The position numbers were made by a program, and so were the translations under genes. The notes beneath the pieces are model-generated. The model ran no database searches, was not told the origin of the DNA, and was given only the letters and a program-made list of their open reading frames with translations. A stretch of DNA of 64,000 bases from an uncultured Bacillales bacterium (GTDB lineage: Bacteria > Bacillota_I > Bacilli_A > RFN20 > CAG-826): NCBI GenBank assembly GCA_947302535.1, contig CAMYVX010000002.1:7341-71340 (forward strand). The letters run 5' to 3'. Below are positions 4,658 to 64,000 of the stretch, piece after piece; within the stretch, counting starts at the first letter, position 1; each line of letters begins with the position of its first letter.

Positions 4658-5086
4658 ATGATTAATCGTGTCGTTCTCGTGGGTCGCTTAGTGCGCGATC
4701 CAGAACTCAAAAAAACCACTTCTGGTAATCCTGTATGCACATTCACAGTCGCGGTTGATAACCGTATGAAGAATCCTGATGGATCAAAAGGAACTAGTTT
4801 CCTTCCATGTGTTGTCTTCTCTCAAGCTGCTGACAATGTGTCAAAGTTTACTAGAAAAGGTTCATTGGTAGGTATCGAAGGTCGTTTAAACCAAAGAAAT
4901 TTCACTCGCACCGATGGAACTAAAGGAACTACTATTGAAGTTTTATGTGATAGTGTTCAATTCTTAGAACCAAAAGGTAATCACTCTGATGCTGAAATCA
5001 TCTATGATGATGGACCAGCTCAAGATGATATTGAGGATAAGAATCTTGATGGTTTAGATTTACCTGATGATGATCTTCCATTCTAA
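4658..5086 (+). CDS. ssb: Single-stranded DNA-binding protein
   Basis: MINRVVLVGRLVRDPEL, acidic tail DDDLPF; RBS AGGAGG at 4643-4648. Confidence 0.97.
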   Translation: MINRVVLVGRLVRDPELKKTTSGNPVCTFTVAVDNRMKNPDGSKGTSFLPCVVFSQAADNVSKFTRKGSLVGIEGRLNQRNFTRTDGTKGTTIEVLCDSVQFLEPKGNHSDAEIIYDDGPAQDDIEDKNLDGLDLPDDDLPF

Positions 5087-5104
5087 ATTAGAAAGGAAAT
5101 TATT

Positions 5105-5332
5105 ATGGCATTTAAAAAAGTTAGACCACATAAGAAAGTATGTGTGTTCTGCAAGAACAAATCTAAATTCATTGATTATAAAGATGTTGAATTACTCAAG
5201 ACCATGATTACTCCAAATGGAAAAATTTCTCCACGTAGAGGTACAGGTACTTGCGCTAAACATCAAAGAGAATTAGCTGTAGCTATTAAGAACGCTAGAT
5301 TTATGGCGCTTCTTCCATACGTCCAAGACTAA
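5105..5332 (+). CDS. rpsR: 30S ribosomal protein S18
   Basis: [30 protein letters not shown] (Zn-binding Cys type). Confidence 0.97.
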
Positions 5333-5342
5333 TAATTGTTTG

Positions 5343-5484
5343 TGTAGCAGGATAGTCGCGATTTGCCTCAGTTGGCTAAAAATGACTTCCCTCGCAAGGC
5401 AGTTAGTCGAAGCATATGAAGAAGTCCTAAGTCTAGGGCTAAAATCAATGTAAATTAAGTCGTCTATAATGGGCGGCTTTTTTT
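5343..5484 (+). repeat. ~140-nt structured intergenic element, copy 1 (full length), ending in an intrinsic terminator
   Basis: TGTAGCAG...GTCGCGATTTGCCTCAGTTGGCTAAAAATG...TCGAAGCATATG...GGGCTAAA.TCAATGTAAATTAAGTCGTC...GGCGGCTTTTTTT; near-identical blocks at 7011 and 12548. Confidence 0.9.
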
Positions 5485-5542
5485 GTGTTATAATTAATTG
5501 AGATTTCTCTGTAAAATATTGCTAATATATTATCAATAATCA

Positions 5543-5576
5543 TTGAAAAATGATGAAAATATGCTAAAATATTAGC
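5543..5576 (+). promoter_or_regulatory. Putative promoter and operator of the hipB/hipA-like pair
   Basis: TTGAAA, 16 bp, TGc-TAAAAT (5565-5570); inverted repeat GCTAA-aata-TTAGC (5563-5576) overlaps the -10. Confidence 0.5.
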
Positions 5577-5578
5577 GT

Positions 5579-5869
5579 ATGGAAGAACAAGCATTACAAT
5601 TTATTACATATTATGAAAATCAGTTAGAAATAGCTAAACGGTTTGTTGCAATTAGAAAAAACAAAAAGGTGTCTCAAAAGAAGTTGTCTATTCTTTCTGG
5701 TGTTTCTTATGCCTCCATCAGAAGATTTGAAAAAACTGGAGATATATCTCTAGCTTCGTTGGTTAAAATGGCTTTAGCGTTACAGCTTTATGATGATTTG
5801 GACAATTTGTTCAAAAACCATCAAGAATACAAATCAATTGAGGAAATAATCAATGATCAGAAAGATTGA
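5579..5869 (+). CDS. XRE-family HTH protein, HipB-like antitoxin
   Basis: RKNKKVSQKKLSILSGVSYASIRRFEKTG HTH; overlaps the downstream HipA-like gene. Confidence 0.8.
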   Translation: MEEQALQFITYYENQLEIAKRFVAIRKNKKVSQKKLSILSGVSYASIRRFEKTGDISLASLVKMALALQLYDDLDNLFKNHQEYKSIEEIINDQKD

Positions 5870-6944
5870 TGTTATTGCCGATAAAATAAAAGTGGGAACG
5901 ATTGCTCTAACAAAAGACAATAGAGTGGCTTTTCAATATAGTGACGAATGGATAGAAAATGGCTTTTCCATTAATCCATTCAAGCTGCCTCTTTCAAGAC
6001 AGCTATTTTTTGCTACCTCACCCTACTTTAAAGGTTTATTTGGAGTTTTCGCGGATTCCTTGCCGGATAGTTATGGCGAACTGCTTCTAGAACGTTATTT
6101 AAAAAGCAAAAAAATAAAAATTGGTGAGATCACATGTCTTGACAGGCTTGCATATGTTGGCTCTTCTGGCATGGGTCTATTAGAATATGTTCCTGATTTG
6201 AGCGTTGATACCGATAGAAGTAATGTTGATTTTGATTTAATACAAAAAGAGTGCAACGATTTATTGGATTCTAAAGAAGTTGATAATATATATGAATTAT
6301 ATTCATTGGGCGGCTCTAGCGGAGGAGCTAGACCGAAATCACTAATTAAATATGATGGCGAAGATTATATTGTTAAATTTTCTTCTAGATTTGATCCAAA
6401 AAATATTGCTGAACTTGAATATAAATATATGTCCCTTGCTCGTAAAGCAGGAATAAATATACCAGATATTAAACTTGTGACATCAAAGAGCAGAAGTAAA
6501 TATTTTCTTATTAAAAGATTTGATAGAAATGGCGCAAAAAAGATTCATATGATAAGCGCAGCCGCTCTTTTAGAAGTCGATTTCAGAGCCCCTTCCCTTG
6601 ATTATAATGAATTGATCAAACTTACTAGAATATTAACAAAAAATGATGGTGATATTTTAGAAATATATAGAAGAATGGTTTTTAATGTTCTAATTGACAA
6701 TCAAGATGACCATGCGAAAAACTTCTCATTCATCTATGACAGCACGAACAAAACATATAGATTATCCCCTGCATACGACATAACTCCTGGTAAAACGTAT
6801 TATGGCGAGCACACAACTTCTATAAATGGAAAAGGGAAGAATATAACCGATGAGGATATGATAAAGGTTGCTATAAATAACAAAATAGATTCAAGTGTTG
6901 CTAAAAGCATTATTGAAAGATGCAAAAACGCTATAAAGAATTAG
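5853..6944 (+). CDS. HipA-family kinase toxin (type II TA)
   Basis: N-terminal couple domain (FQYSDEW, FADSLPD), GSSGGARPK loop, IKRFDR, FNVLIDNQDDHAKNFSF, LSPAYDI. Confidence 0.9.
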   Translation: MIRKIDVIADKIKVGTIALTKDNRVAFQYSDEWIENGFSINPFKLPLSRQLFFATSPYFKGLFGVFADSLPDSYGELLLERYLKSKKIKIGEITCLDRLAYVGSSGMGLLEYVPDLSVDTDRSNVDFDLIQKECNDLLDSKEVDNIYELYSLGGSSGGARPKSLIKYDGEDYIVKFSSRFDPKNIAELEYKYMSLARKAGINIPDIKLVTSKSRSKYFLIKRFDRNGAKKIHMISAAALLEVDFRAPSLDYNELIKLTRILTKNDGDILEIYRRMVFNVLIDNQDDHAKNFSFIYDSTNKTYRLSPAYDITPGKTYYGEHTTSINGKGKNITDEDMIKVAINNKIDSSVAKSIIERCKNAIKN

Positions 6945-7010
6945 CCGACGCAATTAAAAATGCAAGATTAATGGCACTTCTCCCATTCGTTGCAGACTAA
7001 TTAAACTCAT

Positions 7011-7154
7011 TGTAGCAGGGGAGGGCAGTCGCGATTTGCCTCAGTTGGCTAAAAATGGCTTTCCTCACAAAGCATTAATCGAAGCATATGAAGAAGTCCT
7101 AAGTCTAGGGCTAAATCAATGTAAATTAAGTCGTCCATAGTGGCGGCTTTTTTT
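7011..7154 (+). repeat. ~140-nt structured element, copy 2 (full length)
   Basis: Aligns with 5343-5484 along its whole length; same hairpins and terminator. Confidence 0.9.
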
Positions 7155-7474
7155 GTGCTGTCTGGGCGGTCTGTCGGGCGTCGTCAAGGCGTGCACGTTT
7201 CGTACGACTGCGTGTGAAGCAATTGGAGGCCTTCGTGTCGAAGCTTTGTCGGGCAGCTTGTCGTGCCGTCGTCGAAGTAGTCGTGGCAAAATTGGACAAC
7301 TGGCGGAGGGCAATTTTGGGGAAAGCGGATTTTAAACTAAACATGGAAAATGGGTTTGAACAATTACATAAGTATAATGAAACAATTGCTAACTCTAGAA
7401 AGTGATAGAAATGTATTTTCTATTTACTACTGACATGCTCTATAATAATTTCAATATTTGAGGCGATTGACTTT

Positions 7475-9643
7475 ATGAAACGGAAAAAACTAGCAACCTT
7501 ATTGGCATTATTCGCTACAACATTATGTGGTTTGGTGTCTGCTATTGCGTCTGGCAGCAACCACGACCCCATTATGAATAAAGCAGAAGAAATTCCTTAT
7601 CGAATTGATTTATCTTATGAAAATAAACAACTCACCAAAGAAATTGAATATAACTACGCCACATTTAAAGTAGTTAATGTCTATACATATCGAGGAAGTA
7701 AACTCAAATTTCTACAATATGATGTTTCTTACGATAACGAAAAAGTTGTACTTGGTAATGGCGCGTGGTTTGGCACGATTGGTGAAACCGATGTTTATCG
7801 AAGTTTAATTAAAGGCTTAACTTGTATTCACTTTGTGAACGGCTCCAATTTACTTGTTAAATACTCTTGGCATGAAAATTCAGGCAATGTTTATGAAGAA
7901 CAACCAGACTCCAACGGAGATGTTTATTTTAGTGGTTTAATGCCTTCATATTTTAGAGTTGAACCGTTAAATAGTAGTGGGGCCTCATTCTCTTCTTGTG
8001 AAATCTATTATGATTGTTTGGTTTCCCCAACTGATGAGCCTCAAGAACGCACTGCTTCTAATGTAGCCATGAAACAATCATTCTGTGGTGCTGACCCAGG
8101 AGATTTGTATCGCTATATTGACCCTGATCACTCCTTAGAGCGTACTCAAGTAGGCAATGACTATATCTTCGCAGAATACAATAAAACAATTGAGCAATCT
8201 TTAGACTTACATAACTTAGTTATGTCATTTAATTTTTCTTCCCCAATTGGTGGAAAAACCCACTACGAGGGAGTGAGATTAGATGATCCATTTGTGACTG
8301 ATTTAAATATTTGGCATGAAAATTCTGAACATACCAAAGTTGAATATGGCGAACAAACCTTGCATGTATCATTTACATTCAAAGGTTTTGGACATGTAAC
8401 CAATCATTCATTTACCGTGTTTGGTTATTATAGATCAACATCCCATTTTAGTGTTGTTTCTGCTGATAATGTTAGAAAACAAGCTAATGAAACTATCCCA
8501 GAAGAAAACGCTGTTCTTATTTGGTCATATATTTCTTTCATTGGATGGGGATCTATTGACGCTTTTGATCAAACAGCATGCCAAGAATATGTTGGATGCT
8601 CCATGTTCTATAGAACAATTAATTTCAAAGACTTACAACATTTACAATTAGATGAGCATCCATTTACCACTGTCGGAGAGCATGAATTATCTTTTAGATT
8701 AGAAGAATACTACACACTCCATGCGTCATACTATGTCTATGACGAAGATAATTATCTTAAAACAATTGTCTACAATGGTTTCAAAAAAGAAATTGAACCA
8801 GGTTTTGACTTTGAAGGATATTTTGAAAGTGGAGCGGCGTCTGTAGACCTTATGTACTATGATGGAACGTTTGAGAATATTGTCATCGATGAAAATCATG
8901 TTGATTTATCAAAAGTTAACACATACGTTGAAGGATTATATCCTTACTTTGTTACAATCAAGGGCAAAAAATATAAGCAATTCGTTTCTGTGGTCTTAAC
9001 TGATATCGGCGAAGATGAATATAACGTTACTTACACAACCAGTCCAGATAATTATGAGAATGTTTATGCGTGGGGATTTGATTATTATGCTGCTTTCAAT
9101 CAAGTGTATATCAAGTCTATTACTACAAGCTCTATGGGTTATCGTGCAGTTTGCTTTATGGATTTAGCTCATCCAGATAAGAATAACTTCACTCGTTGTG
9201 GTACCTATGCAGTTGATAGTGATCATCATCAATTAGTGTTGTTTGGACAACTATGGGCAAGTAGAGTTTCCTTCTATCACCAAGAAGGAGATGGAGAAAG
9301 AGAATTTAAACTCAGCGAACATTGTGAAGTTGAAACCAGTTATGCAGTCAACAAAACATTAATACCTACAGAAGATTCTTATATGTGGAATCATTATGGA
9401 GAAACAACCGATAGATTCTACATCTTTAAGACCGAAAATAACGAGATGAAAGTCACGCTTAACAGTTTGACTATCAGAACAACGTTATCTTATCTCAATG
9501 AAGAGAAGACACAGATTTCGTTTAATATCCCATTCATCAGCTTCGATGGGTCATTAGTTAGTATTATTTTACGTGCAACAATTAATTATTCAGACAACTC
9601 AATATTTATTGAAACACCAAGTGAACTTATCTATGACGACTAA
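7475..9643 (+). CDS. Large exported or surface protein with a probable Ig-like (Big_3-type) segment
   Basis: N-terminal signal MKRKKLATLLALFATTLCGLVSAIA; VDLSKVNTYVEGLYPYFVTIKG resembles bacterial Ig-like group 3 repeats; remainder unrecognised. Confidence 0.7.
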   Translation: MKRKKLATLLALFATTLCGLVSAIASGSNHDPIMNKAEEIPYRIDLSYENKQLTKEIEYNYATFKVVNVYTYRGSKLKFLQYDVSYDNEKVVLGNGAWFGTIGETDVYRSLIKGLTCIHFVNGSNLLVKYSWHENSGNVYEEQPDSNGDVYFSGLMPSYFRVEPLNSSGASFSSCEIYYDCLVSPTDEPQERTASNVAMKQSFCGADPGDLYRYIDPDHSLERTQVGNDYIFAEYNKTIEQSLDLHNLVMSFNFSSPIGGKTHYEGVRLDDPFVTDLNIWHENSEHTKVEYGEQTLHVSFTFKGFGHVTNHSFTVFGYYRSTSHFSVVSADNVRKQANETIPEENAVLIWSYISFIGWGSIDAFDQTACQEYVGCSMFYRTINFKDLQHLQLDEHPFTTVGEHELSFRLEEYYTLHASYYVYDEDNYLKTIVYNGFKKEIEPGFDFEGYFESGAASVDLMYYDGTFENIVIDENHVDLSKVNTYVEGLYPYFVTIKGKKYKQFVSVVLTDIGEDEYNVTYTTSPDNYENVYAWGFDYYAAFNQVYIKSITTSSMGYRAVCFMDLAHPDKNNFTRCGTYAVDSDHHQLVLFGQLWASRVSFYHQEGDGEREFKLSEHCEVETSYAVNKTLIPTEDSYMWNHYGETTDRFYIFKTENNEMKVTLNSLTIRTTLSYLNEEKTQISFNIPFISFDGSLVSIILRATINYSDNSIFIETPSELIYDD

Positions 9644-9652
9644 GGAGCCTTA

Positions 9653-9757
9653 GCTTCCTCAACAGGGCATTAATCGAAAGCGAACGGTAAGGGCTCATAG
9701 ATTGGGCTAAATCAATTATGTTTGATGAATTAAGTCGTCTATAATGTGCGGCTTTTT
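9653..9757 (+). repeat. Structured element, copy 3 (5'-truncated, diverged)
   Basis: GCTTCCTCAACAGGGCATTAATCGAAAGC...GGGCTAAATCAA...AATTAAGTCGTCTATAATGTGCGGCTTTTT aligns to the 3' two-thirds of copies 1 and 2. Confidence 0.8.
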
Positions 9758-9816
9758 GTGGCACTTTTGTGACAACTAGTGTGTTAGGATATGGTTAACA
9801 AAGGAGTACTTTGAAC

Positions 9817-10104
9817 ATGAAACAAGAATTATTAAAAGGTTTAACTGAAGAACAAATTGCTAGAGTTAAAGCTTGTAAAAACCAAGAAGAGCTTTTGGCT
9901 TTGGCCAAAGAAGAAGGCATTGAACTTACTGACGAGCAACTAAACGCGATTAGCGGTGGAGGAGCTTGTAGTGTTGCTTCAGATATTGGAGATTTTTTCA
10001 ATCCATTTGATTGCCCAGAATGTGGATGTAACGATATTAAGGCTGTGGAAGGCAAAGGCAATTTATTTGAATGCCAAGGTTGCGGCTTTAGATGGAGGGA
10101 GTAA
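9817..10104 (+). CDS. Nif11-type leader peptide precursor 1 with Cys-rich zinc-ribbon-like core
   Basis: Leader ...LLALAKEEGIELTDEQLNAISGG, core CPECG-x13-CQGCGFRW; RBS AGGAG at 9802. Confidence 0.8.
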   Translation: MKQELLKGLTEEQIARVKACKNQEELLALAKEEGIELTDEQLNAISGGGACSVASDIGDFFNPFDCPECGCNDIKAVEGKGNLFECQGCGFRWRE

Positions 10105-10112
10105 GAAAAAAT

Positions 10113-10400
10113 ATGAAAAAAGAATTATTAAAAGGTTTAAGCGAAGAACAAATCACTAAAGTAAGAGCGTGCAATAATAGTGATGAATTATTGGCGTTAG
10201 CAAAAGCAGAAGGTATCGAATTAACTGATGAGCAACTTTCTACCATTAGTGGTGGTGGTGCTTGTAGCGTTATTTCAGATATTGGAGACAAAATCAATCC
10301 ATTTGATTGTCCATTCTGTGGATATAACGGTAAATTTGATAAAGACGGTAATGAAATTACCTGTCCGAAATGTGGAAAAACTTGGAGAGATAATGGTTAA
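10113..10400 (+). CDS. Nif11-type leader peptide precursor 2 with Cys-rich zinc-ribbon-like core
   Basis: Paralog of 9817-10104: LLALAKAEGIELTDEQLSTISGG, core CPFCG...CPKCGKTW. Confidence 0.8.
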   Translation: MKKELLKGLSEEQITKVRACNNSDELLALAKAEGIELTDEQLSTISGGGACSVISDIGDKINPFDCPFCGYNGKFDKDGNEITCPKCGKTWRDNG

Positions 10401-10428
10401 TTTTAAATATTAGAATATAAGTTTTCCG

Positions 10429-10705
10429 TATAAAAAAGAATTATTAAAAGAATTAACCGAAGAAGAAACCGCAAAAGTAAAAGTGTGCAAATCACAAGAT
10501 AGTCTTTTAGCATCAGCTAAAGAAGAAGGAATTGAGCTTACAGAAGAACAATTAGAAGCGGTTTCTGGCGGTGGATGTTTCAGCAGTTCAGGTAAATGTG
10601 GAATGTGTGGAAACAAAGACATCTCATAATCGTGGCTATGCAGGAGATTACTGCACTTGCAAATGTAGAAAATGCGGCCATACTTGGAACATATATATCA
10701 ACTAA
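10429..10705 (+). pseudogene. Third Nif11-type precursor, disrupted (no ATG; frameshift near 10624)
   Basis: Frame 1 gives KKELLKELTEEETAKVKVCKSQDSLLASAKEEGIELTEEQLEAVSGGGCFSSSGKCGMCGNKDIS*; the +1 frame continues HNRGYAGDYCTCKCRKCGHTWNIYIN*. Confidence 0.8.
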
Positions 10706-10739
10706 TTATTAAATTAATCAGTTTGAATAACATCAAGAT

Positions 10740-10793
10740 AATTAAGTCGTCCTAAAGGCGGCTTTTTTGTGCTGTCTGGGCGGTCTGCCCGAC
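10740..10793 (+). repeat. Structured element, copy 4 (terminator end only) plus the 3' flank shared with copy 2
   Basis: AATTAAGTCGTCCTAAAGGCGGCTTTTTTGTGCTGTCTGGGCGGTCTG; the GTGCTGTCTGGGCGGTCTG flank is identical to that after copy 2. Confidence 0.8.
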
Positions 10794-10829
10794 TATGAAA
10801 AACCACCGGATTTGGATATCTATTACAAT

Positions 10830-10855
10830 AAAAAACGCACGGATGTCCGCGCGTT
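10830..10855 (-). terminator. Intrinsic terminator of the minus-strand surface protein gene
   Basis: Minus strand AACGCGCGGA-ca-TCCGTGCGTTTTTT. Confidence 0.65.
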
Positions 10856-10861
10856 CTATGT

Positions 10862-12151
10862 CTAATTTATACTATGTACTTTTTTCTTTTTGATAATAAG
10901 TAAAGTGGTTAGAGATAAAGTAGCAATAGCGGCAACAACAATTAATAATGGAGTGTTATCAGAACCGAAATCATAAAAGACGCTACTAGTGGATGTGCTC
11001 TTTACTGAGAAGGCTCTATTTGGAGAGCTAGCTCTATCAATATAATCATATAAGCCATAATCTTTATAGAAAACTACATAGTCATATCTATATAAGGCTA
11101 CTTCTCTAAGATAAGTAGAATTTTCTTTAGCCACTGAGGTTTTAAGTAAATCTCTAAATGAATAAGATTCATATTGTAAATCAAAGAAGAAATAAACCCA
11201 ATCTTCGTTAGAGAAGCTTCTAGTTTCTCCGGTACAAGTAAATTTATCTAACATCTTTTGTGCGTATATTTCAGTACGCTCAATATCATCTACTGAGGCA
11301 CAGTTATAATTATCTCCAAATTTGCCTTCTAACATTTTGAAGTTACATGAACTTTCTACATCATCTTGATTAGTGGTTTGATTCCATTTTGAATCCCAGC
11401 TATATTGAGGTCCATTTGGATCGTTTCTAGTAAAGATAATACCTGAACACCAAATATCTTGAGAGGTAGTTGCGACTAATTTATTTAATGTAGTGTCAAA
11501 TTCCATTTTCACAAAAATAGATGTATAGCTAAATAAGAAATCAAAATAACAATAGCTTACAAAATAATGTGTCGCGTCAGCATCTAACCAATTGATATCG
11601 CATTCAGTGAGATCTAAAGTAACAGTAGTGCCTGATGGCATAAATTTAAATTTTTCATCTCTCATGCCGAGGTTATAATCAGCATAATCCCAATCGTCTA
11701 CTCTAATAGTGTTTGGACTATCGGATAGATTTCTAACTATATCTTCTTTACACATATTATAAATGGTGACACCATCTAGAGATGTGATTCCTGCTGGAGT
11801 GGAAATAGGAGTTCTAAAGATTCTACTTTTTGGAAGATTAACTGGTAATTCAGTAATTCCAAGTCGAGGACCAATCACAGTGATATCAAACAATTCTCCG
11901 TTTGATTCGGTATAACTAAAATCTCCAGTAAAACACCAAACAACCGCCTTAACTCCTTCAGCATTTAAATATTGATCAGCATTTTCCATTGCTCCATATT
12001 GATCAACTCCGACATAGGTTCTTTTCATGGTCACTTCATCTTCTGCTTTAGCGATAACTGGTTTATTAGTCTTGTTGATACGTAAAGAAGATAATCCAGC
12101 AATAGATATGAGCCCTAATAACGAAGTAGCAATGATATTTCTAATTTTCAT
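10862..12151 (-). CDS. Exported protein with C-terminal membrane anchor; possible carbohydrate-binding module
   Basis: Signal peptide MKIRNIIATSLLGLISIAGL; IIFTRNDP...WDSKWNQT resembles starch-binding-type modules; C-terminal YRYDYVV..KDYG, hydrophobic helix, KKKK; RBS AGGAGAG supports the ATG at 12151. Confidence 0.7.
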   Translation of the reverse strand: MKIRNIIATSLLGLISIAGLSSLRINKTNKPVIAKAEDEVTMKRTYVGVDQYGAMENADQYLNAEGVKAVVWCFTGDFSYTESNGELFDITVIGPRLGITELPVNLPKSRIFRTPISTPAGITSLDGVTIYNMCKEDIVRNLSDSPNTIRVDDWDYADYNLGMRDEKFKFMPSGTTVTLDLTECDINWLDADATHYFVSYCYFDFLFSYTSIFVKMEFDTTLNKLVATTSQDIWCSGIIFTRNDPNGPQYSWDSKWNQTTNQDDVESSCNFKMLEGKFGDNYNCASVDDIERTEIYAQKMLDKFTCTGETRSFSNEDWVYFFFDLQYESYSFRDLLKTSVAKENSTYLREVALYRYDYVVFYKDYGLYDYIDRASSPNRAFSVKSTSTSSVFYDFGSDNTPLLIVVAAIATLSLTTLLIIKKKKVHSIN

Positions 12152-12547
12152 AATATTCACTCTCCTAAACAAATAAACAAAGTATCTAAAGTTATATAAC
12201 TTTTAACTTCGTAATTCAAGAAATTATTGATTTAATACGATTCATTCTAAAAAACATGAGAAAATAAAAAAACGCATTTTTCTAGCGCTAACAATCTCTA
12301 TTCAATAATTAACACAGATAACTTACTCACAAACATTAATCTTAAGCACACAAACTTAATATGTTTGACACTAAAGAAGATCTACTAACACTAGATTATT
12401 TCTTACTCTCTCTACTCCCCACGCACTCCGCCTTCAACAGCAAAAGGAAAGCTGAAATGCCCGCTCGCAAACTCAACACTTCACGATATGATTTAGATAG
12501 GCGGCTTTAGACAAAATTGAATGGATCGTCTTAGACAACGACACTTT

Positions 12548-12686
12548 TGTAGCAGGGCAGTCGCGATTTGCCTCGTTTGGCTAAAAATGACTTTCCTCGC
12601 AAGGCAGTTAGTCGAAGCATATGGTTAGGCCTTGAATTTGGGCTAAATCAATGTAAATTAAGTCGCCCATAACGGACGGCTTTTTT
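12548..12686 (+). repeat. ~140-nt structured element, copy 5 (full length)
   Basis: Aligns with copies 1 and 2; substitutions keep the hairpins pairable. Confidence 0.9.
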
Positions 12687-12743
12687 CTATTGCGATAGGT
12701 TGCTGTTATTTTATTCATTAAGACAAAAAAGTATAATGAATAC

Positions 12744-14597
12744 ATGAGAATAAAAAGTGTATTTTTAGCAACATCAGTATTGATTTCACTATGTTCATGT
12801 AAATCTAAACAGAACTATTTTACCATTTCATGGCTAAATTATGATCGTAGTGTGCTTGAAATAGATAGAGTTGAAGAAGGTTTGTTACCTTCTTATGATG
12901 GAGATGAGCCAACAAAACTTAGTGATGACTCTTTTGACTATGATTTTATTGGTTGGGATAAAGAAATTGAAGTAGCGTCAAAAGATACTGAGTATATTGC
13001 TATCTATCAAGAAATAAAAAGAAAAGGGAATATCGTTGCTAGTCAAGAAAGTGGTTTTTATAATGAACCATTTTATTTGGAATTAAATGCCCCTAGGGGA
13101 TTTGACATTTATTACTCCTTAGATAACACAATTCCTGATGAAAACTCTTTGTTATATAATGAACCAATTTATATTGAGGATGTATCCTATAAAGAAAACT
13201 ATTATTCTATGAAGCAAGGTATTTCATCATTAGATGTTTATTATCCTCAAGAGCTAATAGATAAGTGCCAAATTGTCAAAGCTATAGCGATAAACAAAAC
13301 TAGTCAAGAAAGAACAAAAGTATATGAATACAATTACTTTGTTGGTTATCAAAACAAATTAGGTTATTCAAGTATTCCTATCATCACAATGAACGTCAGC
13401 GAAGAGGACTTGTACGACTACGAAAAAGGAATATATGTTACCGGGAAAATTTATGATGAATCTCCTCATGAAGGATACCCAGAAACATATCCGGCAAATT
13501 ACAATCAAAAAGGAAAAGAGTGGGAAAGAGCCGCAAATTTCAAGTATTTTAATGAATTTGGAGATCTAGAACTAGAACAAAATATCGGTATTCGTATCCA
13601 TGGAGGCTGGTCTAGAGCGTTCAATCAAAAGTCATTTAATTTATATGCAAGAAAAGAATATGATGGGAATTCCACTTTTCAAAAAACCTTCTTTTCAAAT
13701 ATAAATGCCCATTCGTTGATGTTAAGAAGTGGCGGATATCGCGATACCACATTAACCAAATTAAGAGACTCATTAAACCAAACCCTTTCTTCTAATGAAG
13801 GTTTTGCGGTTCAACAAAGTCACCCGGTTATCTTATTTTTAAATGGAGAGTACTGGGGAAGCTATAACCTTCAAGAAAGATATTCTGATAATTATGTTCA
13901 AGAACATTATCCTGACATTAATAAGAAAGACGTTTTAATTATCAAAAACGATGAAATAGACGAAGGCGAAGAAAGCAAATTCTATCTTTATGAAGAACTA
14001 GTAGATTTTTTTAAAGATCGCACTTTTGAAAGTGAAACAAATTATGAATTAGCAAAGAGTTATATTGATGTTGATGAATTTGCTTCGTATATGTCCACAC
14101 AACTATATGTTGGTAATATTGATTGGCCAGGGAACAATGTCCGTGTATTTAAAGATACTTCTAAAGATGATTCTAAGTGGCATTTTATGATGTTTGATAC
14201 AGATGATTCTTCAAATATATTACCCGCTAAATGTAGTGCGATTGTTGATCCATTTTTAAGAAGCTCACACTGGAAAAGTGGTCCTTTAGAAGAAGATTGC
14301 TTATTAGGTTTGATTTTATCAAAATTAATTGCTAATCAAGAATTCAAAATGTTATTTAGAGATACGTTTATCAGAATAGGCGAGCAAGTGTTTTCTCTTG
14401 AACATGTTGATGATTATTTAAAAGAAATGAAGACTAGATTAGCAACGCCAATGGTTAACAATTATAAAAGATTTGTTAGTAACAATTATAGTGAACAGTA
14501 CTTTCTTGATAAGGTAAATGTTATCGAGACATTTTTTGAAGAAAGACACGATTATGCGATAAGCTTCTTAAATCAACACATTCCAATCGCTAACTAG
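12744..14597 (+). CDS. CotH kinase-family lipoprotein with chitobiase/Fn3-associated domain
   Basis: Lipobox LCSC; SGFYNEPF...IYYSLDNTIP domain; GIRIHGGWSR, KSFNLYARKEY, NGEYWGSYNLQER, DWPGNN, FDTD CotH motifs. Confidence 0.85.
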   Translation: MRIKSVFLATSVLISLCSCKSKQNYFTISWLNYDRSVLEIDRVEEGLLPSYDGDEPTKLSDDSFDYDFIGWDKEIEVASKDTEYIAIYQEIKRKGNIVASQESGFYNEPFYLELNAPRGFDIYYSLDNTIPDENSLLYNEPIYIEDVSYKENYYSMKQGISSLDVYYPQELIDKCQIVKAIAINKTSQERTKVYEYNYFVGYQNKLGYSSIPIITMNVSEEDLYDYEKGIYVTGKIYDESPHEGYPETYPANYNQKGKEWERAANFKYFNEFGDLELEQNIGIRIHGGWSRAFNQKSFNLYARKEYDGNSTFQKTFFSNINAHSLMLRSGGYRDTTLTKLRDSLNQTLSSNEGFAVQQSHPVILFLNGEYWGSYNLQERYSDNYVQEHYPDINKKDVLIIKNDEIDEGEESKFYLYEELVDFFKDRTFESETNYELAKSYIDVDEFASYMSTQLYVGNIDWPGNNVRVFKDTSKDDSKWHFMMFDTDDSSNILPAKCSAIVDPFLRSSHWKSGPLEEDCLLGLILSKLIANQEFKMLFRDTFIRIGEQVFSLEHVDDYLKEMKTRLATPMVNNYKRFVSNNYSEQYFLDKVNVIETFFEERHDYAISFLNQHIPIAN

Positions 14598-38314: not shown

Positions 38315-38857
38315 ATGGGCGTTGTTGGTCGTTGGCTTGGTATAGAATGTTTTAAACACGATGGCAATTTGCACCGCATTTGGGATCGTGGTTTTGTTGT
38401 GGAAAACAATCACGACTATGTCGTTGTCGCTACGAAAAGAGCCAAAGTGACAGAATCTAATGGACGTAAATGGTTTACTAAAGAACCCGCAATTACCATT
38501 TTCTCGAAGCAGGAGTGGTGGAATGTTATTTGTATGATTAAAGAAAATGGCATCTGCTATTACTGCAATATTGCTTCGCCTTCTGTTTTAGACCGCGATT
38601 GTGTGAAATATATCGACTACGATTTAGATGCTAAATTATTCCCTAATGGAGTAGTGAAAGTATTAGATGAAAAAGAATATCAACATCACCGCGATACTTA
38701 TAAGTATGGTGATGATTTGGATATGATTCTAAGATACACGACTAGAAATATCGTCAAGAGAATGAACAAAAAGGAGTTTCCTTTTGACGATGAAATGGTT
38801 CGTGACTACTATCAAGATTTTCTTGATATCACTAATAAAGATAAAAATGAAGATTAA
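38315..38857 (+). CDS. DUF402 family protein (nucleoside tri/diphosphate phosphatase-like)
   Basis: FKHDGNLHRIW, YYCNIASP, YIDYDLD, LDEKEY. Confidence 0.88.
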   Translation: MGVVGRWLGIECFKHDGNLHRIWDRGFVVENNHDYVVVATKRAKVTESNGRKWFTKEPAITIFSKQEWWNVICMIKENGICYYCNIASPSVLDRDCVKYIDYDLDAKLFPNGVVKVLDEKEYQHHRDTYKYGDDLDMILRYTTRNIVKRMNKKEFPFDDEMVRDYYQDFLDITNKDKNED

Positions 38858-39296
38858 AATAACTACCCATTCATATGAGGAAACAATGGGCCTCGGCATG
38901 TCTTTAGCACGCTTACTTCCAAATGGAAGTACAGTTTTACTTACCGGAGATTTAGGCGCTGGAAAAACAACTTTAGTAAGAGGAGTGGCGCGTGGATTAC
39001 ACATCAATGAGCTTGTGCAATCGCCAACCTTTAATATCATGAAACTTTATCTAAAAGGAGATAGAGCTTTAATTCATATTGATGCCTATCGCTTAAAAGA
39101 TATCGAACAAGATATTGGTTTAGATGAATATATTGGTTATGAACAAGGTTTAACTTTTATTGAATGGCCAGAATATATTGAAAACCTTCTTCCTAAAGAA
39201 GTTATGAATATAGAAATTCATCATGTAGATGATGATGTTCGTGATATCGAGATTACTTATCACGACGAGAAAGTGTTGGAGGAATTAAGAAAATGA
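38847..39296 (+). CDS. tsaE: t6A biosynthesis ATPase TsaE
   Basis: LTGDLGAGKTT, QSPTF, HIDAYR, IEWP. Confidence 0.95.
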   Translation: MKIKITTHSYEETMGLGMSLARLLPNGSTVLLTGDLGAGKTTLVRGVARGLHINELVQSPTFNIMKLYLKGDRALIHIDAYRLKDIEQDIGLDEYIGYEQGLTFIEWPEYIENLLPKEVMNIEIHHVDDDVRDIEITYHDEKVLEELRK

Positions 39297-45239: not shown

Positions 45240-45674
45240 ATGAAGCATTTTTTCCTAACTGTACTTTTTTCTTCATTGTTGTTAGCTTGTCAAAGTGAAA
45301 GAAATGAACCAATCTACGAACTCTCATATGATGATTATTTGGACTCTTCAATTGTCTATGAGGATATGTTTTCTCAAAAGGAGGATGAGTATTTTGTGTA
45401 TATATATTCAAAGAGTTGTTCCCACTGCGAAGCGATTAAAAATGATGTGCTTTCTTTTTTAAAAGAAGACATCGTTCCCGTTTATCTATTAAGGTACACG
45501 AAAGACATAAGAGTTAATCAAGATATTGAACTAACAATTGGTGTTAGTGATATTAATGATTTTTATATCGCGGGCACCCCAACTTTAGTTCATATTTACG
45601 AGCATTGTGTCTTAAATAATGTTGTCGGAGAAGTTGATGTGATAAATTACATCAACCTTTATAATAAGAATTAA
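45240..45674 (+). CDS. Thioredoxin-fold lipoprotein
   Basis: Lipobox LLAC, CSHC motif, cis-Pro GTPT. Confidence 0.75.
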   Translation: MKHFFLTVLFSSLLLACQSERNEPIYELSYDDYLDSSIVYEDMFSQKEDEYFVYIYSKSCSHCEAIKNDVLSFLKEDIVPVYLLRYTKDIRVNQDIELTIGVSDINDFYIAGTPTLVHIYEHCVLNNVVGEVDVINYINLYNKN

Positions 45675-58972: not shown

Positions 58973-60532
58973 ATGAAAAAGAAATTTAGAACACCGTTTA
59001 TTGTTCTGACAATTATCTCTTTTGTCTTACTCGTTGCCTTCATTGGATTGTATTTGGGTTCCTTCTTTGCATTGTTCTCCGGAGCTGATGGCAAAGATAT
59101 TTTCGAATTCATTTTCAAGATTCCATCTGATGGTTTTGTTAAGGCAATCACATTCCAAGATTTTCTTAGTGAAAAATTCACTATCATCAACTCTGTTTCG
59201 TTGATCGTTTTCTTGGTCTTAATTGTTTTAGGAATTATTTTAAGCATTGTCTTAAATAGAAAGAAAGCCAGCGCGATTGTTTGGACTTTAATCTCTTCTA
59301 TTTTAATTGCTGTTCCTGCTTTATTCTTATGTCCAATTTTCTTAGACACATTAACTGTCTTTGAAGGTGAACCAGACGCTATCGTGAGAGTCTTATTCAT
59401 CTGTGTCTTTGTGTTTGGTATTCTTTATCCAATCATTGTCTTTGTTAATTTATTCATCGCACATGCGTACGTTAAAGAATGCTTAAAACCAGTTGAAGAT
59501 GCGCCTCTTGCTTTAGGCGATTCTGATTTCGCCGAACCAGAACCAGTGGAATATGAACAACTTGATGTTGAACCAGTTCCTACTTTCTTACCTGAACCAG
59601 AACCAGAACCAGAACCAGCTAAGGCTCCAGAAGTCTTAGATGCTAATTCTCTTGCTTCTGTTTTAAAAGATGTTGTTCGTGAAATCGTTCGTGATGAAAT
59701 TGCACGCAATAACGCTAATAATCAACGCGAAGAAAAAGCTACAACTGATAATCACAGTATCGTTGGTGCGACCTTCGGTGGACCATTAGTCGTTCAATAC
59801 TTTGGCAGCTACAATCCTGTTGCTACTCCAGCACCTGCTCCAGCTCCAGCACCTGCACCAGAGCCAGCACCAGAGCCAGCACCAGAACCAAAACCTGAGC
59901 CAAAGCCAGAACCAGCTCCAGCACCTGCACCAGAACCAGAACCAGCTCCAGCACCTGCACCAGAACCAGCTCCAGCACCAGAGCCAGCACCTGCACCAGA
60001 GCCAGTGGTCGTAGTTGTTGAACCAACTCCTGCTCCAGCACCAGTTGAACCAGCACCTGCACCAGAGCCAGCTCCAAAGGCCCCAATTGTTCGTATTTCT
60101 TTCCAAGAAAGAATTGTTGATGCTGATAAAGATATTCAAGATGCATATAACGAAATTAAAAATGAAATCTTATCCTATGGTGTAAAATCCCGTGTTTCCT
60201 CTAGTGGAGATACCTTCAGATTACACCGCAAGACATACGTCAAAGTTACTGTCGCAGGTAAGAGTTTGAAATTATACTTCGCTTTGAATCCTGATAACTA
60301 TCGTGATTCAACTATTCCAGTTCAAGATGCCGGAAATAAGGACACATATGCCGAAATTCCTCTCGTCTTTAAGGTCAGAAGTGGTTTATCCTTAAGAAGA
60401 TGTAAACAACTTATCCAAGATGTCATGGAAGTCGATCACTTAGAACAAAAAGAAGTCGAAACCGTGAACTGGGTTAAAGAAATTAAAGCCGAGTTAAAAG
60501 AAAAAGCCAAAGCCGAAAAAGCCGCTAAATAG
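58973..60532 (+). CDS. Membrane protein with Pro/Ala/Glu-rich linker and C-terminal globular domain
   Basis: Four N-terminal TM helices, (PA/PE)n region, C-terminal SFQERI...IKNEILSYG...GKSLKLYFAL domain. Confidence 0.85.
   Translation: MKKKFRTPFIVLTIISFVLLVAFIGLYLGSFFALFSGADGKDIFEFIFKIPSDGFVKAITFQDFLSEKFTIINSVSLIVFLVLIVLGIILSIVLNRKKASAIVWTLISSILIAVPALFLCPIFLDTLTVFEGEPDAIVRVLFICVFVFGILYPIIVFVNLFIAHAYVKECLKPVEDAPLALGDSDFAEPEPVEYEQLDVEPVPTFLPEPEPEPEPAKAPEVLDANSLASVLKDVVREIVRDEIARNNANNQREEKATTDNHSIVGATFGGPLVVQYFGSYNPVATPAPAPAPAPAPEPAPEPAPEPKPEPKPEPAPAPAPEPEPAPAPAPEPAPAPEPAPAPEPVVVVVEPTPAPAPVEPAPAPEPAPKAPIVRISFQERIVDADKDIQDAYNEIKNEILSYGVKSRVSSSGDTFRLHRKTYVKVTVAGKSLKLYFALNPDNYRDSTIPVQDAGNKDTYAEIPLVFKVRSGLSLRRCKQLIQDVMEVDHLEQKEVETVNWVKEIKAELKEKAKAEKAAK
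59820..60078 (+). repeat. Low-complexity coding repeat (CCAGCA/CCAGAG/CCTGCA units encoding PAPAPE)
   Basis: Tandem hexamer codon pairs; they explain the spurious minus-strand ORFs here. Confidence 0.9.
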
Positions 60533-62929: not shown

Positions 62930-64000
62930 ATGGAAAATCCTCTTAAACCCGTATTTATATTAATCGATAAAAATAAAACTGATCTTGATAAATCATTTGA
63001 ATTTCTTTTTCTTTTACGAACCGCTGGTTTATTTGCGAGGACCGACTTTTTTCAAGCAGTAGATTCTATTAATCCTTCTTATTATGTTGGTAAAGGAAAG
63101 CTATTTGAAATCAAAGCAGCAAAAGAAAAGTCCGATACTTTTCCTAATGTTTTTTTCCCTGGAAAAATTGAGCATTTGGTTCTTAATTTCGATGTAAATC
63201 CTCTACAAAAAAAGAATATTGAACAAATTACAGGCTTAAAAGTCATTGACTATACGTCGCTTATCCTCCTTATCTTTGAGATGAACGCTCATAGTAAGGA
63301 AGCTATCCTGCAAGTTGAGATTGCTAAGTATCAATATTTAAAGAATCAATTAATGGATGGGCATGCTTCTTATGCTCAAACTCGTGGTGGTTCTGTACGT
63401 AGTAAAGGGGTAGGAGAAAAACAAATTGAACTAGACCGTAGAACACTATCTTTACTTATTAAAGCCAAAGAAAAAGAACTAGAAGAAATCAAACAAGAAA
63501 GAAGGACTATGAGGGTTAAAAGAATCAAGTCTGGAATTCCTAATATTGTTGTCATTGGATATACCAACGCTGGTAAATCAACTTTGATGAATCTTCTTTT
63601 GGACTATTCAAAGAGCAAAGATAATAAACAGGTTTATGTTCAAGATGAATTATTCGCGACTTTAGAAACTTCCACTCGTTTAATTTCTTCTTATCGCTAC
63701 CCTCGATTTCTTTTAACGGACACAGTTGGTTTTATTGATGGACTTCCTTCCACTTTAGTAAAAGCTTTCCGCTCGACATTAGAAGAAATTAATGAGGCTG
63801 ATTTATTAATTCATGTTGTCGATATTTCTCAGCCATATTATGAAGAACATATTGAAGTGACTAATGATATTCTTAAACGTTTAAAAGTAAAAGATATTCC
63901 TATGATTTATTTATATAACAAAGTAGATAAATTAAGGGATGGTATCCCTTTCTTACCGAGTGATAATGAACTATATACTTCTTTAATTGATGAAGAAGAT
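62930..64000 (+). CDS. hflX: Ribosome rescue GTPase HflX (3' truncated)
   Basis: ATG at 62930; read directly from sequence: YVGKGK, RSKGVGEKQIELDRR, GYTNAGKST, LFATL, DTVGFI, AFRSTLEE, NKVD; no stop before the window end. Confidence 0.93.
   Translation, partial: MENPLKPVFILIDKNKTDLDKSFEFLFLLRTAGLFARTDFFQAVDSINPSYYVGKGKLFEIKAAKEKSDTFPNVFFPGKIEHLVLNFDVNPLQKKNIEQITGLKVIDYTSLILLIFEMNAHSKEAILQVEIAKYQYLKNQLMDGHASYAQTRGGSVRSKGVGEKQIELDRRTLSLLIKAKEKELEEIKQERRTMRVKRIKSGIPNIVVIGYTNAGKSTLMNLLLDYSKSKDNKQVYVQDELFATLETSTRLISSYRYPRFLLTDTVGFIDGLPSTLVKAFRSTLEEINEADLLIHVVDISQPYYEEHIEVTNDILKRLKVKDIPMIYLYNKVDKLRDGIPFLPSDNELYTSLIDEED

Follow-up and report, generated by a model that had tools for sequence, protein, structure and literature searches.

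What do the tandem genes at positions 9817-10705 of this window encode, and where do their products act? By the window we mean the whole stretch of 64,000 nucleotides (nt) analysed here, which comes from contig CAMYVX010000002.1 of an uncultured Bacillales bacterium. The segment consists of three tandem copies of one gene type, here called P1, P2 and P3 (Table 1). We consider it reasonably probable that P1 and P2 form a two-gene operon of which P3 is a decayed third member, and that the products are precursors of exported zinc-ribbon mini-proteins. The corrected annotation of the window comprises two intact precursor genes, one pseudogene, a promoter and a terminator.

Gene structure and transcription of the peptide cassette

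The P1 precursor consists of the leader MKQELLKGLTEEQIARVKACKNQEELLALAKEEGIELTDEQLNAISGG followed by the core GACSVASDIGDFFNPFDCPECGCNDIKAVEGKGNLFECQGCGFRWRE; P2 carries a leader as in P1 and the core GACSVISDIGDKINPFDCPFCGYNGKFDKDGNEITCPKCGKTWRDNG. The N-termini of both follow the pattern MK(Q/K)ELLKGL(T/S)EEQI..V.AC.N..ELLALAK.EGIELTDEQL..ISGG, after which come GACSV.SDIGD..NPFDCP.CG and a second CxxCG knuckle, and protein identity between the two copies is 68%, their DNA being 74-77% identical across 144-223 nt. They are translationally coupled, because the last codons of P1 form the Shine-Dalgarno sequence of P2. The preliminary description of this DNA had already placed the P2 ribosome-binding site over the end of P1, and the sequence bears this out, GGAGGGAG being made of the last P1 codons; a Shine-Dalgarno sequence within the tail of the preceding gene recurs in relatives. 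In P1-type genes the codons of the C-terminal W-R-E (TGG AGG GAG or TGG AGA GAG) double as the Shine-Dalgarno sequence of the next gene, both in the window (10090-10104) and at matching sites in the related loci L001, L005, L006, L008 and L009, and this dual constraint may account for the invariant W-R-E tail.

P3 has lost its start codon: its start region reads CCGTAT-AAAAAAG where, in the alignment, the intact third genes of L001 and L008 have CCGTATGAAAAAAG. The frame ends after ...GGGCFSSSGKCGMCGNKDIS at the premature TAA, and CRKCGHTW, which is the second knuckle, is encoded in the +1 frame (10628-10705); the core belongs to the subtype GGGCFSSxKCPxCGSKD(Y/F)RK...CxxCGHEWSL. Contigs of close strains from three gut metagenomes have ATA for ATG and an 11-nt insertion at 10618-10623, and they keep the stop. 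Because these related strains also carry broken versions, the decay is real and shared and not an assembly error. P3 as a working gene with an alternative start is ruled out by the premature stop and the frameshift, which are present in related strains too. The three paralogs of the preliminary description are thus two intact copies and a pseudogene, and the pattern CxxCG...CxxCGxxW, which it had assigned to all three cores, holds for P1 and P2, whereas P3 fits it only across the stop and the frameshift.

No canonical sigma-70 promoter with -35 and -10 elements was found upstream of P1; the place of the -35 element is taken by a box of two direct repeats, followed by an extended -10 element. 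This box is the sole match in the window and is not significant alone (1 match against 0.64 expected at up to two mismatches); what gives it weight is that relatives have it at a fixed position. In related loci totalling 1.15 Mb the pattern TGTG[AG]C[AG]-N4-TGTG[AG]C[AG] is found 188 times, against a rough expectation well under one, and 163 of these occurrences lie directly upstream of family genes, at equal distance. Other boxes precede the head gene of the machinery cluster described below (L019 4948) and a gene for a hybrid kinase/receiver protein (L002 17604), and the remaining ones also precede genes for class-3 lipases of about 665 residues and for surface proteins with Ig-like or InlB repeats. 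Since the repeat spacing and the distance to the -10 element have the geometry of PhoB/OmpR boxes, we infer a response regulator as the activator. Transcription would then depend on this activator, with the direct-repeat box, 10 bp and the extended -10 element serving as a promoter that has no -35 element, and the box would mark a regulon which in relatives comprises dozens of family genes, genes for secreted lipases and surface proteins, and the processing cluster.

The P2 type is transcribed in the rumen. Three rumen metatranscriptomes from two studies contain contigs that match the P2-specific core region at 95% identity or more (10156-10384, 10269-10457 and 10279-10387), one of which spans P2 into P3. 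The earliest start among the RNA contigs is 9802, with none reaching further upstream and none extending past 10481; these limits fit a transcript start just after the -10 element, DNA carry-over being possible. The terminator that closes the cassette after P3 is a terminator-only copy of the 3' end of a repeat of about 140 nt (10740-10768), to which we return with the surroundings of the operon.

Leader, core and spread of the family

The leaders of P1, P2 and P3 score 20.9, 15.6 and 13.3 bits with PF07862 (Nif11; curated cut-off 23.8) and 20.8, 20.1 and 19.9 bits with TIGR03798 (leader_Nif11; curated cut-off 32.3), with leader E-values of 4e-4 and 3.5e-4 for the two models, and PF07862 matches 74 of 87 aligned family members at E<=0.01 (best 1.1e-5). 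The double-glycine model TIGR01847 (bacteriocin_sig; cut-off 15.7) is passed by P1 (16.0 bits) and P3 (18.4) and failed by P2 (14.7). The leader ends in ...ELTDEQLNAISGG, followed by G as the first core residue, and a cut after G48 puts isoleucine at -4 and leucine at -7 and -12. L37 and L42 are both invariant, and L37-x4-L42 fits the L(X)4L motif reported for the Nif11 leader structure (preprint 10.64898/2026.10.04.756588); Cys20 is invariant as well. Among the 287 family open reading frames (ORFs) found in related loci, 239 fitted a simple cleavage-motif pattern by which the boundary was placed, yielding 217 unique cores, and the leader ends in GG in 237 of these 239. Judged by their profile matches, the leaders appear homologous to Nif11 at a sub-threshold level. 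The Nif11-type leader with a double-glycine site that had been described for these genes therefore stands as far as the Nif11-likeness and the canonical GG site are concerned, whereas strict Nif11 membership does not, the scores being below the cut-offs.

Past the cut, the core layout is x(0-4)-Cys and then CPxCG...CxxCG, the knuckles being C66-P-E-C69-G...C86-Q-G-C89-G in P1 and C-P-F-C-G...C-P-K-C-G in P2. A cysteine lies within the first five residues past GG in 216 of the 217 unique cores, 204 of the 217 contain CxxC...CxxC, and most hold five or six cysteines. Zn_Ribbon_TF (PF08271) is matched by 68 of the 87 members (best E 7e-8), and the best matches of a PDB profile search are zinc ribbons, namely TFS4/RpoM-2 (E 2.7e-5), then Rpb12 and L37ae. 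An AlphaFold2 model of P1 built with 87 sequences predicts leader helices at 11-19, 23-33 and 39-45, disorder at 46-62 and a three-stranded sheet at 74-94 (strands 74-76, 83-86 and 92-94; predicted local distance difference test score, pLDDT, about 75). The core thus looks like a zinc ribbon by sequence, and the earlier suggestion that the CxxC pairs suit metal binding and exported mini-proteins is the one that fits these counts best.

A zinc ribbon need not be exported. Such ribbons are typically cytoplasmic domains that bind nucleic acids or proteins, the JGI annotation labels some members 'predicted RNA-binding Zn-ribbon protein', the window has no exporter, and the invariant Cys20 sits in the leader. 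The proteins might accordingly be intracellular two-domain mini-proteins in which a Nif11-like helical domain, a flexible GGG linker and a zinc ribbon stay together, uncleaved and unexported. We regard this as distinctly unlikely, because GG keeps a constant distance, with -4, -7 and -12 occupied by hydrophobic residues, and P1 and P3 pass the double-glycine model, because family genes are embedded in the NHLM exporter operons of relatives, and because one promoter box is common to the family, secreted proteins and the exporter cluster. Moreover, one leader precedes very different cores, including short hydrophilic peptides with a single cysteine, and the model shows no packing of leader against core (predicted template modelling score, pTM, 0.29).

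The family is very large and apparently undescribed. A search with P1 of a 90%-clustered protein database returned 1,168 proteins, nearly all unnamed, the best being 66-87% identical over the full length, and a profile search of a 50%-clustered library returned 1,697 clusters at E<=0.001, 223 of them at E<=1e-10; full-text literature searches found nothing on zinc-ribbon cargo with Nif11 or GG leaders. Among species-representative genomes, members occur in metagenome-assembled genomes (MAGs) of uncultured rumen Erysipelotrichaceae, Bacilli and 'Bacillales', with a few Lachnospiraceae and one Pseudobutyrivibrio. The 287 ORFs come from 78 related loci, with a maximum of 13 per 20 kb, so that the three copies in the window belong to a paralogous expansion; given this recurrence, the observation exceeds chance. 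The members in Lachnospiraceae and Pseudobutyrivibrio MAGs (L056, L062, L065, L071 and L078) are about 48-52% identical to P1, and the family therefore crosses the boundary between the classes Bacilli and Clostridia. One further match lies on a 'Saccharibacteria' MAG contig (L070), which may be a binning error.

A minority of members have short, hydrophilic cores with a single cysteine, for example GG followed by ACSDSTEDSKKDHKRYDK. They combine the usual leader with a core of 13-18 residues, frequently ending in ...HRKIE(S/N), ...RKIDS or ...P(I/V)xNPF, and look more like a modified signal peptide than a mini-protein.

Orthologues of P1 are 80-87% identical, and both gene types are under purifying selection. 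The ratio of nonsynonymous to synonymous polymorphism (pN/pS) is 0.16 in the leader and 0.18 in the core of the P1 type (19 unique orthologues), and 0.24 and 0.07, respectively, for the P2 type (7 genes), whose core is near-invariant across 7 genomes. Cores vary between paralogue types and are not hypervariable within a type. Because core pN/pS is as low as or comparable to that of the leader, each core type acts as a conserved functional unit, which argues against a diversifying library in the style of the prochlorosins. The preliminary description had offered a diversifying library of peptides made on ribosomes and modified after translation (RiPPs) as one reading; these ratios speak against it, and for orthologous types a hypervariable core is ruled out by the purifying selection.

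The same conservation bears on whether P1 and P2 might be an unmodified two-peptide bacteriocin similar to class IIb, whose two components jointly target competitors after GG-leader export. Their genes carry GG leaders and are translationally coupled, they share the N-terminal core block GACSVxSDIGDxxNPFDCPxCG, and in 20 of 21 P1-type loci another family gene follows, usually tightly coupled. That partner varies in type, however: the window and L001 are the only loci where a P2 type comes after a P1 type. By their sequence the cores are hydrophilic zinc ribbons and not amphipathic GxxxG helices, each core type is kept by purifying selection in different species and is not strain-variable, and the cassette lacks an immunity gene, with no further ORF between promoter box and terminator. 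We rejected the two-peptide explanation on the ground that the partner type is not conserved, and give it very little credence; a classical bacteriocin role in general is weakened by the missing immunity genes, the variable pairing of types and the conservation of cores across species.

Putative maturation and export genes in relatives

If the products of P1 and P2 are exported mini-proteins, they need an exporter, and none is encoded nearby. Scanned window ORFs of at least 100 residues include no PCAT, radical-SAM, LanM or YcaO protein, the scan leaving aside an open-ended 357-residue ORF (62930-64000), the ORFs at 38784-39296 and 45240-45674 and those overlapping larger ones; the absence of maturation enzymes from the window, stated in the preliminary description, is borne out on this scope. 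LanM was likewise found neither among these ORFs nor in three related loci with precomputed Pfam annotation.

In three related MAGs (loci L019, L045 and L050) family genes adjoin a conserved machinery cluster of eight parts (Table 1), headed by a gene with the promoter box upstream of it and containing a radical-SAM/SPASM enzyme and two ATP-binding cassette (ABC) transporters. The transporters resemble the TIGR03796 and TIGR03797 exporter pair, which has been tied to NHLP and N11P precursors (Haft et al. 2010, PMC2887384). L050 has a 95-residue zinc-ribbon member within the operon, beside the radical-SAM/SPASM enzyme, and L019 has a P1-type gene 6 kb upstream of the cluster on one contig. In the MAG RGIG9687 the P1 orthologue (L009, 85% identical) and the cluster (L050) lie on different contigs; service in trans is therefore seen directly in a relative. 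The best reading is accordingly the one already proposed, that the window genes are serviced from another locus, since the family adjoins an NHLM-type C39-ABC pair and a radical-SAM/SPASM gene in relatives and P1 stands on a separate contig in RGIG9687.

Whether the organism of the window has such a cluster can be approached through metagenome depth in two samples of one study, X1 and X2. Contigs about 99% identical to the housekeeping genes of the window have depths of 29-33 in X1 and 10-11 in X2; contigs about 84% identical to the radical-SAM/PCAT/ABC2 cluster of L050 have 32.5 and 31.8 in X1 and 13.1 and 12.3 in X2, and a second, different set of cluster-like contigs has 17.1 and 6.4. The match in absolute depth hints that the cluster and the window belong to one genome.

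The radical-SAM/SPASM enzyme gives a best NCBIfam score of 100 bits against equivalog cut-offs of 340-850, and its best matches include the peptide maturases DynA, WgkB, PapB, StsB and AlbA. As the only maturase in the clusters of relatives, it raises the question of a classical radical-SAM RiPP library akin to sactipeptides or ranthipeptides, in which the knuckle cysteines would not be metal ligands and would act as donors in thioethers, the SPASM enzyme cross-linking them ahead of leader removal and export. Such a library would suit a cysteine-rich family with tandem paralogous precursors, and segment 46-62 is conserved yet predicted to be disordered. We nevertheless think it unlikely: CPxCG...CxxCG with a spacer of 10-19 residues, strand-forming flanks and many zinc-ribbon matches is a zinc-knuckle signature and not the cysteine/acceptor pattern of sactipeptides, the peptides adjacent to the enzyme hold one cysteine, and the sole universally conserved cysteine is the N-terminal one. 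This cysteine is near-universal, and the short peptides encoded next to the radical-SAM gene have no other, which makes it the best candidate target of the enzyme.

Combining these observations, we propose the following hypothetical multistep route for the exported mini-proteins, in which (i) the 48-residue leader, with three helices, L(X)4L (L37-x4-L42) and I-x-G-G, would be recognised by an NHLM-type C39-peptidase ABC pair (TIGR03796- plus TIGR03797-like) encoded elsewhere in the genome; (ii) this pair would cut after G48 and export the 47-residue core; (iii) the core would fold on four cysteines (CPxCG...CxxCG) as a three-stranded zinc ribbon; and (iv) the fifth cysteine, 0-4 residues past the cut, would probably be the target of the single radical-SAM/SPASM enzyme and receive one thioether-type modification. 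The anaerobic, reducing rumen would let thiolate-zinc sites last outside the cell.

Several observations weigh against this proposal. The leaders lie under the curated Nif11 cut-offs of PF07862 and TIGR03798, and the transporters of relatives fall slightly under those of TIGR03796 and TIGR03797. The overall confidence of the AlphaFold2 model is low (mean pLDDT 60.5, pTM 0.29), and when the P1 model was compared with the PDB by Foldseek, nothing significant was returned (best E 0.25), the non-significant top rows being generic zinc-ribbon ribosomal and transcription proteins. Exported Cys4 zinc ribbons are unusual, and the four cysteines could instead be cross-link donors or form disulfides. 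The case for an exporter in the window's own organism is indirect, coming from relatives and from the depth match in only two samples of a single study; about the same X1/X2 ratio is shared by all three contig sets, including the cluster of the second organism. Finally, neither an immunity gene nor a receptor gives a clue to function.

Beyond the operon, we offer a broader hypothesis, which we hold tentatively and consider doubtful as a whole: rumen Erysipelotrichaceae-like bacteria and some Lachnospiraceae may practise a signal-controlled secretion of folded zinc-ribbon mini-proteins, with dozens of conserved core types per genome sharing a common Nif11-like GG leader, one direct-repeat box and a single NHLM-type PCAT pair, one cut-adjacent cysteine being marked by a new radical-SAM/SPASM clade and the short single-cysteine peptides acting as the pheromone of the regulon. 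If true, it would add a new class of RiPP-like products and provide the first family of zinc-ribbon proteins that is extracellular. Exported zinc-ribbon mini-proteins would mean that PCAT/Nif11 systems are not confined to short modified peptides and also send out of the cell large repertoires of small, folded domains that bind metal, in a strictly anaerobic habitat. The family, abundant in ruminant gut metagenomes, supplies tractable domains of about 47 residues and brings an uncharacterised radical-SAM/SPASM enzyme of apparently single-site specificity, and the compact promoter box defines a secreted-factor regulon in uncultured rumen bacteria.

Further features of the cluster stand beside this account. 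The protein of about 397 residues that heads it has no Pfam or NCBIfam match; a D-x-H-x-x-N...YD-like motif recalls HipA-type kinases, and the protein also occurs in L063 (3317-4522), where a short single-Cys peptide gene likewise comes after it. We do not link it to the HipA of the window (5853-6944), to which it shows no significant BLASTP similarity (E 0.022). Directly past the two ABC exporter genes lie a STAS anti-sigma-antagonist-like protein and a membrane SpoIIE-type PP2C/GHKL fusion (L050 8739-10902; L045 16204-17301), a pair that is a partner-switching module with no obvious sigma factor.

The window itself is a chromosomal region near ftsH-dus-lysS-ssb ... gdpP-rplI-dnaB. Behind rpsR, copies of the repeat of about 140 nt part unrelated cassettes: hipBA, a 722-residue exported protein, the peptide genes, an anchored surface protein and cotH. 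The hairpin of the 5'-truncated copy closes the upstream cassette of the 722-residue gene. Positions 5000-13000, scanned with Rfam at E<=1, matched nothing but a snoRNA by chance, so that the element belongs to no known RNA family. A closely related strain in X1/X2 keeps hipA and has no sequence matching 7200-9000; cassettes therefore differ between strains exactly at the element boundaries. No family matches were found for the exported or anchored proteins of 722 residues (7475-9643) and 436 residues (10862-12172, minus strand), and the cassette array is adjoined by a CotH kinase-family protein with Fn3-associated and chitobiase C-terminal-like domains (12744-14597). Farther away, a 519-residue ORF (58973-60532) with no Pfam match contains 12/18-nt repeats (59571-60088) encoding Pro-Ala-Pro-Glu-type segments, a run that is probably a cell-surface linker region.

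Table 1. Positions of the peptide cassette, the repeat element and the machinery of relatives (window coordinates unless a locus is named)
Feature	Position	Strand	Description
P1	9817-10104	+	Intact 95-residue precursor gene; ATG 9817, stop 10102-10104
P1 leader	9817-9960		Residues 1-48; predicted cut after G48
P1 core	9961-10101		Residues 49-95; Cys51 and putative zinc ribbon C66/C69/C86/C89
P2	10113-10400	+	Intact 95-residue precursor gene; ATG 10113, stop 10398-10400
P2 leader	10113-10256		
P2 core	10257-10397		
P2 Shine-Dalgarno GGAGGGAG	10094-10101	+	Inside final P1 codons (W-R-E), directly before the TAA stop
P3	10430-10705	+	Pseudogene: ATG lost, premature TAA 10627-10629, frameshift
Promoter box TGTGGCA-CTTT-TGTGACA	9757-9774	+	Two 7-bp direct repeats, 11-bp periodicity, in place of -35
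Extended -10 TGtTAGGAT	9782-9790	+	Begins 10 nt past the box; TGnTAAnAT conserved at equal distance in relatives
Intrinsic terminator AAGTCGTC-CTAAA-GGCGGCTT and T run	10744-10772 (hairpin 10744-10764)	+	Closes the peptide cassette
Repeat of ~140 nt, full copies	5343-5484, 7011-7154, 12548-12686		
Repeat of ~140 nt, 5'-truncated copy	9653-9757	+	3' end ~9728-9757 (AATTAAGTCGTC...GCGGCTTTTT) is a terminator-like hairpin
Cluster item 1: ~397-residue protein	L050 787-1977, L019 4988-6175, L045 8440-9639		Heads the cluster; box upstream
Cluster item 2: short single-Cys family peptide			Directly upstream of the radical-SAM/SPASM gene in three loci
Cluster item 3: 464-residue radical-SAM/SPASM enzyme			PF04055 and PF13186; no equivalog
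Cluster item 4: ~130-residue membrane protein			Weak likeness to the NHLM HlyD N-terminus
Cluster item 5: 722-residue transporter			TIGR03796, 828.5 bits (cut-off 853.3)
Cluster item 6: 727-residue transporter			TIGR03797, 652 bits (cut-off 709.4)
Cluster item 7: STAS protein			
Cluster item 8: membrane PP2C/GHKL protein			
Short single-Cys members	L019 6533-6718, L045 9664-9900, L050 2059-2259, L011 7813-8013, L063 4573-4761, L068 6456-6647		

Comparison with known systems

The closest likeness is to the N11P/NHLM systems, in which Nif11-derived precursors (TIGR03798, PF07862) go with the NHLM export trio TIGR03794/03796/03797 and of which the prochlorosins are an example (Haft, Basu & Mitchell 2010, PMC2887384). 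Common to both are a long helical GG leader, large and scattered paralogous families, one exporter serving in trans, L(X)4L before the cut and the pairing of a C39-ABC transporter with a peptidase-less ABC transporter. In contrast, the leader described here is shorter (48 residues) and below the curated cut-offs, so that formal N11P membership fails, and the hosts are rumen Firmicutes and not cyanobacteria. Neither LanM nor a cyclodehydratase was seen among the scanned window ORFs and the three related loci with precomputed Pfam annotation; the cores, zinc ribbons as far as their sequence tells, are under purifying selection and are not hypervariable Ser/Thr/Cys peptides. The HlyD partner is reduced to about 130 residues, and a dedicated direct-repeat promoter box ties the scattered cargo genes to the machinery.

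Export of small proteins by peptidase-containing transporters is known from PCAT1 of Clostridium (Hungateiclostridium) thermocellum with its cargo CtA of about 90 residues (PMC6959990, PMC8794836) and from MAM of Faecalibacterium, a PCAT-exported small protein (PMC12184118). There, as we propose for the present family, a small protein is exported by a C39-peptidase ABC transporter that cuts its GG leader. Each of those systems has a single cargo, encoded beside the transporter, whereas here dozens of cargo genes occur per genome, mostly remote from it; the leader is Nif11-like, a zinc ribbon is the predicted fold and there is an associated radical-SAM enzyme.

Thioether RiPPs made by radical-SAM/SPASM enzymes include the sactipeptides and ranthipeptides (SkfB, AlbA, CteB/SCIFF and PapB/freyrasin), and Ruminococcus gnavus has the tandem precursors rumC1-5. 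The present family shares with them a SPASM maturase beside cysteine-containing precursors in anaerobic Firmicutes, and tandem paralogous precursors. It differs in that the enzyme matches no equivalog, only the cut-adjacent cysteine is universal and the other cysteines have zinc-knuckle spacing. The promoter, finally, recalls the 'pho box' of PhoB/OmpR regulators, in which two 7-bp direct repeats with a 4-bp spacer likewise replace the -35 element 10 bp upstream of -10; the repeat here, however, is TGTGRCA, and the regulon it would define consists of genes for putatively exported peptides and surface proteins.

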